Assembly: GCA_964642065.1 (NCBI GenBank)
Contig: CAZXNG010000002.1
Span: forward strand, 1-25,346
Origin: an uncultured Halobacteriales archaeon
GTDB taxonomy: Archaea > Halobacteriota > Halobacteria > Halobacteriales > Halorutilaceae
Direction of reading: 5' to 3'
Length of the DNA: 25,346 nucleotides
The notes under the pieces are model-generated. The model was not told the DNA's origin, made no database searches, and saw nothing but the letters and a program-made list of their open reading frames with translations. Positions 8,431 through 14,697 of this stretch are shown here, piece by piece (the first letter of the stretch is position 1; the number at the start of each line of letters is the position of its first letter). A program made the position numbers and the translations under genes.

Positions 8431-9099
8431 TCAGAACAGGCTCGTTATCGCTCCGGCGACGAACAGTAGGAGGACGCCGAACAGGAACAGGAGCAGGAGG
8501 ATGGGTGTGGCGCGCAGGGCGACGTGGCTCACGGGGAGGAGCCGGGCCTTGTTGGACCAGTTGAGCGCGGAGCCGATGACGAGCGACGGCGCGGAGACGT
8601 CCCGTGCTCGCAGCCTCTCGGAGTCCTGTATCAACGCTTCGACCCAGTCGTGGAGGGGTTCGAGGTCGTGGCCCGACCCCCCGTTGAGCCGGAGGTTCAG
8701 CTCCGTGTTGTACTCGAAGGCGACGCGGGTGATGTTCGCGGAGCCGAGTATGCACTCGGGTTCGGGCCCCATCCGGAGGTAGAGCTTCGCGTGGAGCCCC
8801 TTCGGTCGCTTGTAGATCTCCACCTGGTCGCGGTCGTCCATACGCCAGAGGTCCCGTGCTATCCCCGGCGAGAGCTGGTCGGAGGTGGAGCCCACCACCA
8901 CCTTCAGCCTGTTGTCGGGGGATCTGTCGAGGAAGGACTCGACGTCCTCCCTCAGGCTGAGGTAGCCTTGCTTGGTGAAGTAGCCGCTGACCAGGTAGAT
9001 GGTTCCGTCGCCGTCGAACAGGTCGGAGAGCGCCTGCTTGAACCGGGGCTCCGTGGTGTCGGTGTCGAGGATCTCGTACGTACGCCGTGGGTCGCTCAT
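8431..9099 (-). CDS. Single-domain phospholipase D-superfamily protein (restriction-endonuclease-like HxK type) with a C-terminal transmembrane helix
   Basis: VSGYF, LH103AK105LYL, GSAN(119-122) and N131xE133. C-terminal hydrophobic stretch ILLLLFLFGVLLLFVAGAITSLF. No signal peptide. Confidence 0.85.
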   Translation of the reverse strand: MSDPRRTYEILDTDTTEPRFKQALSDLFDGDGTIYLVSGYFTKQGYLSLREDVESFLDRSPDNRLKVVVGSTSDQLSPGIARDLWRMDDRDQVEIYKRPKGLHAKLYLRMGPEPECILGSANITRVAFEYNTELNLRLNGGSGHDLEPLHDWVEALIQDSERLRARDVSAPSLVIGSALNWSNKARLLPVSHVALRATPILLLLFLFGVLLLFVAGAITSLF

Positions 9100-9724: not shown

Positions 9725-11311
9725 ATGAACGCAGGGTCACGTCGGGTCCTGTTGGCGCTGGCTCTGTCGGGCGTCGTGTTGCTCGTCTGCTCAGGCGTCG
9801 TCGCCGGCGCCGTCGGAGCCGGGGTGTCTGCCGGAGACGACGTCGAAGAGGACGGAGACGGTGGCGACGAGGTGGTCGTCAGGTTCACTCCGGCACCCTC
9901 CGACCTCGACGACGCCGACGGCCTCAGGAGACACGCGAGAGACAGCCAGAGCGCCTTCGTCGACCACGTGGAGGGTCGGGGCGACGTAGACGTAGTGAGG
10001 AGGTTCTGGATATCTAACTCCGCGCTCGTCGAGGTCGAGGGAGACGCCGCCGACGGGCTCGACGAGCTAGAGGGCGTCGTCGGAGTCCATCCGAACTACA
10101 GGTACCGGGTGGCTCAGGTCGAGTCCGAGCTCGACGAGGGTCCGCCGAGAGATATCGGTCACGTACGGAGCAGCCACGGATACGTCGTCGACTACGGCGT
10201 GGACGTCGTCAACGCTACCGGGGTCTGGAACGAGACCATGGGCGACGGCGTCAAGGTCGCGGTCCTCGACACGGGCGTGGAGCCCTCCCACCCCGACGTC
10301 GACCTCTACACGGACGACGTCGCGGACCCCGCTAGACCGGGAGGCTGGAGCGAGTTCGACGCCCAGGGAGTCGCTGTGGACAGCGAGCCCTACGACGCCG
10401 GCGTCCACGGAACCCACGTCAGCGGAACGGTGGCCGGTGGCGACGACTCCGGCGTCTACATCGGGGTGGCGCCGGAAGCGGAGCTTCTGCACGCGAAGGT
10501 CTTCGACGTCGGCGGCACGTTCGCGCAGATCAACGCCGGCATGGAGTGGGCTGTGGAGGAGGACGCCGACGTCATGAGCCTGAGCTTCGGGGTCGAATGT
10601 GAGGAGGGGGAGGACGGCTCCCGCTACGTCCGTCCGATGGTCGAGCCGGTTCTGAACGCCGAAGCCGCGGGGACGTTCGTCGTAGCGGCCACGGGCAACG
10701 GAGGCGAGGGGTGCACGAGCTCGCCGTCGAACGTGCCCGATTCCTTCGCGGTCGGCGCAGTCGACAGGTTCCTTCAGGTGCCGTCGTTCTCGGGCGGCGG
10801 CGATGTCGACACCTCGGAGGCGTGGGGCGACGCCGCTCGCGAGAACTGGTCGGAGAGCTACGTCGTACCCGACGCCGTGGCTCCAGGGGTCGAGGTGGTG
10901 AGCGCTGTCCCGGGCGGAGGCTACCGTGACATGGACGGCACGAGCATGGCTGCGCCTCACGTCGCAGGTGCCGCGGCGCTGGTGCAGTCCACGACCGAGG
11001 AACGCCTCGAACCCGACGAGCTCAGGGAAGCGCTGGAGCGGTCGACGTGGAAGCCGGACGACGCATCCGCGGACAAGGACGTCAGGTACGGTGAAGGCAT
11101 CGTCGACGTCTACGACGCCGTCGAACACGTGCGAGCCCAGAAGGAAGAGGTATCAGACGGGGGAGAGAGCGAAGGGAACGAAACGGGGAACGAGACGGGG
11201 AACGAGACGGGGAACGAGTCGGACGGCTCGCCCGAGGATATGCCGGGCATGGGTTTCGCCGCGGCAGTCGCCGCGCTGTCGGGGCTCGTCGTGCTCCGTC
11301 GGAAGACGTAA
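9725..11311 (+). CDS. Subtilisin-like S8 serine protease with signal peptide, I9-type propeptide and a PGF-CTERM-like sorting signal
   Basis: Catalytic triad VAVLDTG, HGTHVSGT and GTSMAAPH, with the oxyanion Asn in AATGN. The N-terminus has SRRVLL plus an h-region. The C-terminus is PGMGFAAAVAALSGLVVLRRKT. Confidence 0.93.
   Translation: MNAGSRRVLLALALSGVVLLVCSGVVAGAVGAGVSAGDDVEEDGDGGDEVVVRFTPAPSDLDDADGLRRHARDSQSAFVDHVEGRGDVDVVRRFWISNSALVEVEGDAADGLDELEGVVGVHPNYRYRVAQVESELDEGPPRDIGHVRSSHGYVVDYGVDVVNATGVWNETMGDGVKVAVLDTGVEPSHPDVDLYTDDVADPARPGGWSEFDAQGVAVDSEPYDAGVHGTHVSGTVAGGDDSGVYIGVAPEAELLHAKVFDVGGTFAQINAGMEWAVEEDADVMSLSFGVECEEGEDGSRYVRPMVEPVLNAEAAGTFVVAATGNGGEGCTSSPSNVPDSFAVGAVDRFLQVPSFSGGGDVDTSEAWGDAARENWSESYVVPDAVAPGVEVVSAVPGGGYRDMDGTSMAAPHVAGAAALVQSTTEERLEPDELREALERSTWKPDDASADKDVRYGEGIVDVYDAVEHVRAQKEEVSDGGESEGNETGNETGNETGNESDGSPEDMPGMGFAAAVAALSGLVVLRRKT
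11174..11221 (+). repeat. Tandem 12-bp coding repeat x4 (GNET GNET GNET GNES)
   Basis: GGGAACGAAACG, GGGAACGAGACG, GGGAACGAGACG, GGGAACGAGTCG. Confidence 0.92.
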
Positions 11312-13879: not shown

Positions 13880-13980
13880 CCTGCCATAGACGGCGACGTC
13901 GGCGTATCTTCGGGTGTACGTCCCCGACTCACCGCCTCAGGTCAACGAAAGAAATTAGTCTCGTCTCGACAAGTAGTGCC

Positions 13981-14697
13981 ATGCGAGTCAGGAGCGGCGA
14001 CGGCTCCGAAGGTGCACGAGTCTGGCTGGATCGCTCCGAAGTGGACTTCCTCCTGGACAACGCCGACTTTGGCGAACAGACGGGGTTCGTAGACGTCGGC
14101 GGCGGACAGACGGTCTTCGTCGACGACGCCGAAGACATCCGCAGGTTCGCCCTCGCCTTAGGAGTTCGATGCGGGCTCCGCGCCGAAGAGGTGGTCACCG
14201 TCACCGCCGACGACGTAGTCGAGGTGGACGCCGGAACAAGGATACATGTAGAGGGAGGAGGAGAAGAGAGGTTAGCTCCCATCGCCCCGTGGATGGCTTC
14301 CTCGGTCGACCGGTACTCCACCGGAGCCTCGGCCCCGGGAGACAGCCCGTTGCTCGACGTCGGCGTCGACACCATCGAGAACTGGATACGCGAGGCCGCC
14401 GAAAGATGCCGTATACAGTCCGAGGAAGACGGCTGGCGCCACGTCGACAGCCGCGACCTCCGGCGGACCTGGGCGCGTCTCCTCGTCGACAGCGGAGTCG
14501 ACCCCGCGCTCGTCATGGAGTGGGGCGGCTGGAGCGACTGGAGGAGCTACCGCGAGACCTGCTACGGCTCCTGTCCACCCGAGGTCGAACGCACCGAAGC
14601 CAAGAAAGCACCCTGGATGGGAGAAGAGGAGACCGGAAGTGTCTCGACACGGAAGGTCAGCAGGAGAGCGTCCGGCGACCTCGACGTGAAGCAGTGA
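13981..14697 (+). CDS. Short tyrosine recombinase/integrase-family protein (haloarchaeal type), probably catalytically degenerate
   Basis: RVWL.R.EV, LGVRCGLR67, DLR161RTWA, VMEWGGW and terminal E..K.PW match short haloarchaeal integrases. The expected K, H and Y positions are substituted (see findings). Confidence 0.85.
   Translation: MRVRSGDGSEGARVWLDRSEVDFLLDNADFGEQTGFVDVGGGQTVFVDDAEDIRRFALALGVRCGLRAEEVVTVTADDVVEVDAGTRIHVEGGGEERLAPIAPWMASSVDRYSTGASAPGDSPLLDVGVDTIENWIREAAERCRIQSEEDGWRHVDSRDLRRTWARLLVDSGVDPALVMEWGGWSDWRSYRETCYGSCPPEVERTEAKKAPWMGEEETGSVSTRKVSRRASGDLDVKQ
14071..14130 (+). repeat. Imperfect tandem 30-bp duplication inside the recombinase gene
   Basis: 14071-14100 versus 14101-14130 match at 24 of 30 positions, encoding GEQTGFVDVG and GGQTVFVDDA. 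Confidence 0.75.

Follow-up and report, generated by a model that had tools for sequence, protein, structure and literature searches.

A single gene on the forward strand of the window, i.e. the whole 25,346-nt stretch of haloarchaeal DNA that was analysed, encodes a protein with the fold of a tyrosine recombinase and a degenerate active site (Table 1). The ORF is free of frameshifts and stop codons, as had been reported in the preliminary description of this DNA. Phage_integrase (PF00589) was the sole domain detected in the 238-aa protein by Pfam search (residues 55-188, with 33.5 bits where 27.1 are required), a SAM-like N-terminal domain being absent, and PHROG integrase families matched it with an E-value of 6e-16. 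The XerA equivalog model of NCBIfam (NF040815) gave 29 bits, far below its cut-off of 220; the protein has no core-binding domain. An AF2 model based on an input of 25 sequences reached a pLDDT of 76.5, and with this model Foldseek returned a probability of 1.00 to XerA, XerH and Cre. Structural alignment of the model by VIA-align ranged from Z 17.1 for IntI4 (2a3v; 161 residues aligned at an rmsd of 2.5) and XerA (5hxy) to Z 14-16 for XerH, lambda Int and Tn1549 Int. As modelled, the protein has the DNA breaking-rejoining catalytic fold. It is acidic overall (pI 4.55), as are its intact relatives, and neither net charge nor pI told its clade and these relatives apart. Two segments of the protein are specific to the clade, an insert near the N-terminus and a tail at the C-terminus. 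The AF2 pLDDT is below 50 for residues 33-48 of the insert and for the tail; the proteins of the parent family stop at a W-L that aligns with W212-M213, and the tail extends beyond this point.

Table 1. Position of the recombinase-fold gene, its segments and the neighbouring features in the window.
Feature	Position	Strand	Remarks
Promoter-like 18-nt box CAACGAAAGAAATTAGTC (BRE/TATA-like)	13943..13960	+	Ends 20 nt before the ATG
Tyrosine-recombinase-fold gene with degenerate active site	13981..14697	+	Intact ORF, 238 aa
Clade-specific insert, residues 27-52 (26 aa)	14059..14136	+	Opposite a gap in the family alignment and in hhalign; absent from the parent family
ArgI and GluI, R67...E70 of G-L-R-x-x-E	14179..14190	+	Both kept; invariant alignment columns
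Former catalytic beta-hairpin, residues 88-100	14242..14280	+	Acidic, without Lys; shortened by 2 residues relative to the parent family
R158-D-L-R161	14452..14463	+	Arg at the HisII position, ArgII kept
W184, then C194-Y195-G196-S-C198 (C-Y-G-S-C motif)	14530..14574	+	C194 at the nucleophile position; gapless alignment
Clade-specific C-terminal tail, residues 213-238 (26 aa)	14617..14694	+	Conserved core V-S-T-R-K-V-S
Four-helix membrane protein, 156 aa	14705..15175	+	Starts 7 nt past the stop codon of the integrase-like gene
tRNA with CAT anticodon	15259..15333	-	Met according to ARAGORN; begins 561 nt past the end of the ORF

The gene appears to have a promoter of its own. The TATA-like box that had been noticed upstream is real: CAACGAAAGAAATTAGTC shows no difference among the six orthologous contigs (five orthologue variants), and the remaining spacer diverges. 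Its spacing fits a BRE/TATA element of haloarchaea, and its distance to the ATG implies a leaderless or near-leaderless transcript. Even with three mismatches allowed, a search of the own genome gave no second copy, hence no regulon signal was found. A scan for sigma-70 promoters and terminators, which is not built for archaea, returned nothing.

The downstream gene is probably co-transcribed with the integrase-like gene. Their adjacency, with 1-29 nt between them, is kept in three orthologous loci (L001, L014 and L016), and orthologues of the membrane protein are also present in relatives without an adjoining integrase-like gene. No Pfam family matches the membrane protein, which is rich in His. 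The predicted complex of the two proteins scored 0.00, a value that speaks neither for nor against binding. The wider neighbourhood consists of SpoIIM, DUF5789 and TRAM genes on one side and the membrane protein, the CAT tRNA, GNAT and SecY on the other. The order of TRAM gene, integrase-like gene and membrane-protein gene was also found in a second MAG (L001, 71% identity) and holds in L014 and L016 as far as these short contigs extend. In two genomes of the same genus that lack the gene, TRAM gene and membrane gene are found on separate contigs, and one of the two genomes has an inversion of the SpoIIM block with respect to the membrane gene; from these rearrangements it follows that the gene sits at a synteny breakpoint. 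In the clade the gene is present as a single copy at a fixed chromosomal locus, outside any mobile-element context.

A tRNA-Ile2 had been described at about 560 nt from the gene. The distance is correct, and the label is consistent with the data without being proven: the sequence of this CAT tRNA is identical to tRNA-Ile(GAT) of the own genome at 61 of 76 positions (80%), which makes Ile2 the probable identity. No link between this tRNA and the integrase-like gene was found. In agreement with the reported absence of an att repeat, no 12-mer or longer word is shared with the tRNA region anywhere in the window. Direct-repeat families between positions 9000 and 19000 proved to be GC-rich coding noise, inverted repeats around the gene did not rise above noise, and a palindrome at 13890-13905 is not conserved among the orthologues.

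The register of the active site was determined by MAFFT on 25 sequences, by MAFFT L-INS-i on 126 sequences, and by hhalign, in which the five clade members were set against 26 intact relatives. All three gave the same register, the last with a probability of 100%, an E-value of 2.5e-51, 39% identity and a gapless stretch over residues 159-216. A profile search of the PDB additionally anchored the boxes to archaeal XerA 4a8e (G-L-R, G-G-K-G-G-K-D-R, H-Q-L-R-H and G-H-S). The register given in the preliminary description was upheld by these alignments with parent-family relatives, and the motif that it had used, W-x-D-W-x-T-F-R-E-H-Y-L-G, does exist in three of them (P0052, P0058 and P0067).

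Four residues of the active site are kept in invariant columns, namely R67 (ArgI), E70 (GluI), R161 (ArgII) and W184 (His/TrpIII), three of which had already been named as retained (both Arg and the Trp). The losses that had been described were likewise found. The hairpin reads H-V-E-G-G-G-E-E-R, and D-K of the parental G-K-G-D-K-Y-R-E falls opposite a gap of two residues in the clade. The Lys position, two residues before R97, is occupied by E, G, D, D and N in the five orthologues and by Lys in none; R97 is the only basic hairpin residue kept, and in intact relatives it coexists with the Lys. R158-D-L-R161 aligns with the invariant parental H-D-L-R-R and with H-Q-L-R-H of XerA 4a8e, which places R158 (CGC, 14452-14454) opposite the invariant His, and Arg158 is found at HisII in all five orthologues. 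The invariant Tyr of the parental H-Y-[RKL]-G aligns without gaps with C194 (TGC, 14560-14562), and the variable R/K/L aligns with Y195 (TAC, 14563-14565). C194, Y195 and C198 are invariant across the clade. The His that precedes the parental Tyr has also been lost, and its position is now variable. In a motif table of the whole family, nearly all of the approximately 120 relatives outside the clade keep K, H and Y, while the clade members uniformly (5/5) have no K, R and C at these positions. Cys143, Cys194 and Cys198 are three new invariant cysteines of the clade; C64, three residues before ArgI, is ancestral.

A word-indexed search of 5.8 billion proteins yielded four close orthologues (237-239 aa, 63-85% identity), together with a larger set of proteins of about 190-200 aa at 29-41% identity; those that bear a name are called 'integrase' or 'site-specific integrase'. 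When 1.84 billion representatives were searched exhaustively with HMMER, the close clade fell into a single 50%-identity cluster among 265 relatives in total. No further orthologues were found in two scans of 185,579 species genomes, and 40 genomes of relatives, including two of the same genus (76% and 89% complete), gave parent-type or weaker matches only. The number of intact orthologous ORFs is seven, five distinct at the 90% cluster level and two close cluster members, all of them of metagenomic origin (two MAGs plus some short contigs).

Pairwise dN/dS ratios were calculated on the orthologue DNA according to Nei-Gojobori, with bootstrap. The values range from 0.13 to 0.29 at dS 0.58-1.71, and the 95% intervals for three pairs are 0.11-0.24, 0.14-0.33 and 0.19-0.41. 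The membrane gene next to it is equally constrained (0.17-0.28), the TRAM gene more strongly (0.07). Within the protein, constraint is strongest in the insert (median omega 0.07), and of the core the former catalytic hairpin has the weakest (omega 0.35, dN 0.62); the tail has an omega of 0.54 overall, though with invariant residues. Constraint has thus moved from the old hairpin to the newly gained insert. That the gene is real and under selection is nearly certain.

The more distant relatives form a parent family of uncharacterised haloarchaeal integrases of about 195 aa, which contain PF00589 only and occur on plasmids and in Haloferax virus LSV-48N, an integrating virus (PMC12714723). PMC8371274 lists single-domain families, and this may be one of them. 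It shares with the query a layout of a short N-terminal beta-hairpin and helix followed by the catalytic domain, as well as the G-V-R-C-G-L-R, D-L-R-R-T-W and W-G-G-W boxes. In contrast to the query clade, the parent family keeps the hairpin Lys, H-D-L-R-R and H-Y, lacks insert and tail, and its genes are often present in multiple copies per genome and in mobile contexts. Relatives were found on 39 haloarchaeal plasmids; one in Salinirubellus lies in a provirus-like block with small unknown ORFs and a methyltransferase, and one in Halapricum has a second integrase, VapBC and IS605 in its surroundings.

In a maximum-likelihood tree of 112 family members, built with the quick tree search, the clade is monophyletic (100% SH-aLRT) and lies within a part of the family in which K, H and Y are retained. 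Its stem measures 0.92 substitutions per site, its tips 0.06-0.35. Descent of the gene from a mobile element is very probable. Elsewhere in the family, the chromosomal protein P0159 has no Lys, and Ala and Phe at the other catalytic positions. It was considered as the centre of a second conserved 'dead' clade and rejected as such: it has a very long branch, its sole relative is partial (53%), and it resembles a decaying singleton, so it lends no support to recurrent domestication.

The preliminary description had assigned the protein to the SNJ2-like, pleolipovirus-associated integrases and had used their targeting of tRNA genes as an argument. The two have in common that they are haloarchaeal tyrosine recombinases by descent and that a tRNA gene is at hand, SNJ2 integrating at tRNA-Met (PMC5861418) and the query lying near a CAT tRNA. 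IntSNJ2 exceeds 330 aa in length, with SAM-like domains (PF02899/PF13495) at its N-terminus and its Tyr at residue 330. It has Gly and Ala at the GluI and His/TrpIII positions, the SNJ2 type in general showing Gly/Ala at Glu/AspI and Ala/Val at His/TrpIII (PMC5861418, PMC8371274). The query, by contrast, has 238 aa and PF00589 only, with E70 and W184 present, and the 14-bp att repeats that flank SNJ2 have no counterpart in the window. The SNJ2-type identity is therefore rejected, the parent being the family of about 195 aa described above. The tRNA argument has no support here either, since none of 12 related loci has a tRNA within 1.5-8 kb.

Several readings of the degenerate active site have to be weighed. 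The protein could be a still-active, atypical tyrosine recombinase in which Y195 would be the nucleophile, R158 would replace HisII and another residue would act as general acid; a chromosomal task, e.g. dimer resolution or local inversion, could then be its function. Y195 and the phosphate-binding residues R67, E70, R161 and W184 are invariant, as in an active enzyme, and this is a counter-point to a dead enzyme. However, the gapless alignment of W181-W212 puts Y195 at a position that is variable (R/K/L) in every intact relative, and the conserved His that used to precede the Tyr has gone. Other deviations have precedents: HisII is K, Y or A in active SSV-, pNOB8- and pTN3-type integrases, Arg stands at the Lys position of SSV1, and the HisIII-to-Tyr spacing varies between 9 and 12 residues among active archaeal integrases (PMC5861418, Table 1). 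Because of the first of these, Arg158 alone is no proof of inactivity, and the spacing of 11 residues to Y195, against 10 in the parent family, lies within the range given. DSSP of the models places Tyr175 of the parent just past the end of a helix at 168-174, the corresponding helix of the query spanning 187-195, and at such a helix end a slip by one residue may be acceptable. The hairpin speaks against activity, being shortened, acidic and variable with R97 as its sole basic residue. The synteny breakpoint relative to same-genus genomes is in line with such an enzyme, but direct or inverted repeats fit for recombination sites were not found and the location has been stable over dS >1. Taken together, an active recombinase is considered unlikely.

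Recent decay, which had been offered in the preliminary description, would make the gene what is left of an element whose former integration site lay near the tRNA. The loss of three catalytic residues, a GC3 of 0.78 that is slightly under the 0.84-0.88 of the neighbours, and isolated degenerate copies elsewhere in the family such as P0159 would agree with it. Against these stand seven intact ORFs that have persisted at dS up to 1.7 with bootstrap upper limits of omega no higher than 0.41, identical substitutions fixed in all members, a strongly constrained gained insert, an invariant promoter and conserved synteny. The dN/dS values and the conservation effectively refute this reading, which is barely credible. 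It is also very improbable that the protein is a non-catalytic decoy that occupies an attachment site or poisons the tetramers of incoming parent-family integrases, a reading that corresponds to the dominant-negative blocker suggested in the preliminary description. Such integrases are common on haloarchaeal mobile elements, and the protein still has the family's fold and C-terminal W-L segment as well as its phosphate-binding residues. Its tail was gained at the place where recombinases such as Cre, Xer and lambda Int make their trans contacts. Mixed oligomers are nevertheless argued against by the identity of only 29-41% between the clade and intact members, att-like sequence was not found nearby, the parent family has no tRNA association in the 12 loci, and the neighbours are housekeeping genes rather than a defence island.

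The active site could also have been rebuilt for new chemistry or sensing, beyond mere disabling. C194 is invariant, C198 follows one helical turn on, C143 and the ancestral C64 are added to these, and the Arg and Trp of the clamp are kept. One option would be a Cys-based nucleophile that attacks a phosphate ester, another the control of DNA binding by a switch of the metal or redox (thiol) type. We regard a rebuilt site as improbable; with such a switch, the protein would be a redox- or metal-responsive regulator made from an integrase, possibly acting with the probably co-transcribed His-rich membrane protein.

On balance, and with modest preference, the gene is best read as an exapted ('domesticated') integrase descendant that is probably a non-recombining DNA-binding protein. 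Its ancestor would have been a small, catalytic-domain-only recombinase of a plasmid or virus, a copy of which became fixed in the chromosome of one uncultured haloarchaeal lineage between the TRAM-domain gene and the gene of the four-helix membrane protein. On the stem branch it lost the general-acid Lys, with a shorter and acidic hairpin, exchanged the His of HxxR for Arg and the nucleophile Tyr for Cys, and gained the N-terminal insert and the C-terminal tail of 26 aa each and the three invariant cysteines; thereafter it evolved under purifying selection. Judging from these residues, recombination has likely been lost. We infer DNA binding without cleavage because the fold and the phosphate-clamping ArgI, GluI, ArgII and Trp are kept: DNA would still be bound at the old active-site surface, and strand cleavage and exchange would be gone. 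A regulatory DNA-binding role is possible and is proposed tentatively; the protein may act as a regulatory or architectural DNA-binding protein, expressed from a conserved promoter of its own and probably along with the membrane protein encoded downstream. The acidic nature of the protein (pI 4.55), shared by its intact relatives, and the single occurrence of CAACGAAAGAAATTAGTC in the genome are noted here as counter-points to this reading.

Recombinase folds without recombinase activity have been described elsewhere. MrpR/YopR of SPbeta and SroF of phi3T are master repressors of this fold that bind operators (PMC10516654; bioRxiv 10.1101/2025.11.27.690993), and they demonstrate that DNA binding alone can be the mode of action of such a protein. 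Like the query, they have an incomplete catalytic set in a functional, retained gene, and their structures (8a0a, 8bpz and 9rd5) align with the model at Z 10.5-12.3 by VIA-align. The similarity is limited to the level of the fold, with 7-11% identity and Z-scores below those of true recombinases. These repressors are encoded by genes of bacterial phages and possess a core-binding domain, whereas the query is cellular and archaeal and lacks that domain. MrpR keeps Lys and Tyr and has lost both Arg, His and Trp; the query shows the reverse, with Glu kept too. In animals, DUF3504 of KCTD1, ZMYM2-4, QRICH1 and KIAA1958 represents domesticated Crypton tyrosine recombinases without the catalytic set (PMC3212892). 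Here as well a mobile-element recombinase became a permanent host gene; catalytic residues, the Tyr among them, were lost, and selection has since conserved it. DUF3504 differs in being eukaryotic, fused into large multidomain proteins and of independent origin, and in having lost ArgII also. In the literature searched, no described case of an archaeal or cellular prokaryotic tyrosine-recombinase fold without recombination was found.

The detailed analysis confirmed the observation of a degenerate active site, and retention is preferred over decay. Of the proposal in the preliminary description that a non-catalytic protein has been retained, the retention is borne out by selection, synteny and promoter, and the loss of catalysis is read from the residues. 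The clade is an independently evolved variant of the known exaptation of the recombinase fold. It offers a clean example, in which the mobile parent is identified, the losses lie on one long stem and the later selection is measurable. For haloarchaeal MAGs it also means that 'integrase' annotations near tRNAs are not always markers of mobile elements. The pattern is the mirror image of that in MrpR, the clamp being kept and the chemistry residues lost, and the clade provides a natural experiment for separating the DNA-binding from the catalytic parts of a recombinase active site.

Gene order between positions 9725 and 15175 of the window was compared with that of two loci from related genomes, L036 (G001:C75) and L032 (G005:C2), and close relatives were found to differ around the integrase-like locus. 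One genome of the same genus carries the protease-SpoIIM-DUF5789 block in the opposite orientation with respect to the gene of the four-helix membrane protein and has its TRAM gene on a separate contig; in another genus approximately 6 kb of other genes lie between TRAM and the CAT tRNA with GNAT. The breakpoint in gene order coincides with the exact position of the integrase-like gene.

Features of the window and degenerate members of the short-integrase family
Feature	Position	Strand	Remarks
12-nt tandem repeat GGGAACGAGACG	11174-11221		about 4 copies; 3' end of protease-like gene 9725-11311
Four-helix membrane protein gene, 156 aa	14705-15175	+	orthologues at loci L021-L024, L001 and L016
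tRNA, CAT anticodon	15259-15333	-	neighbour of integrase-like gene
P0159, short-integrase family member	L045:5001-5624		hairpin Lys absent; HisII = Ala; Tyr position = Phe
P0056, short-integrase family member	L042:2454-3044		hairpin Lys absent; HisII = Arg; Tyr kept (E-Y-Y-R-G)

Downstream of the integrase-like gene, the four-helix membrane protein has no matching Pfam family and is strongly conserved, with 60 invariant columns among seven sequences, including H55, H103 and the motifs T-G-V-W-K-Y-R and D-T-x-N-Q-F. Related haloarchaeal genomes encode it elsewhere and in the absence of any integrase-like neighbour, which suggests a gene native to the lineage rather than cargo picked up at the tRNA. 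Judged by its sequence, this tRNA is probably tRNA-Ile2 rather than Met: 61 of 76 positions are identical to the tRNA-Ile(GAT) of the genome and the anticodon stem is shared, in a comparison for which the 78%-complete MAG yielded no second CAT tRNA.

The integrase-like protein (13981-14697) contains four cysteines (C64, C143, C194 and C198), none of which varies among the clade members; the parent family has only one of the four. Four invariant cysteines are unusual in a Cys-poor haloarchaeal proteome.

Two further family members with degenerate active sites were found. P0159 is surrounded by housekeeping genes (ribosomal S10, NUDIX, GMC oxidoreductase and TrkA); its very long branch and single, partial relative indicate that it is probably a decaying singleton. 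P0056 resembles the integrase-like protein in its hairpin and HisII positions but differs from it in retaining the Tyr. It occurs in three contigs, all with two small HMA (heavy-metal-associated) genes downstream, and may represent an intermediate state or else a second specialised lineage.
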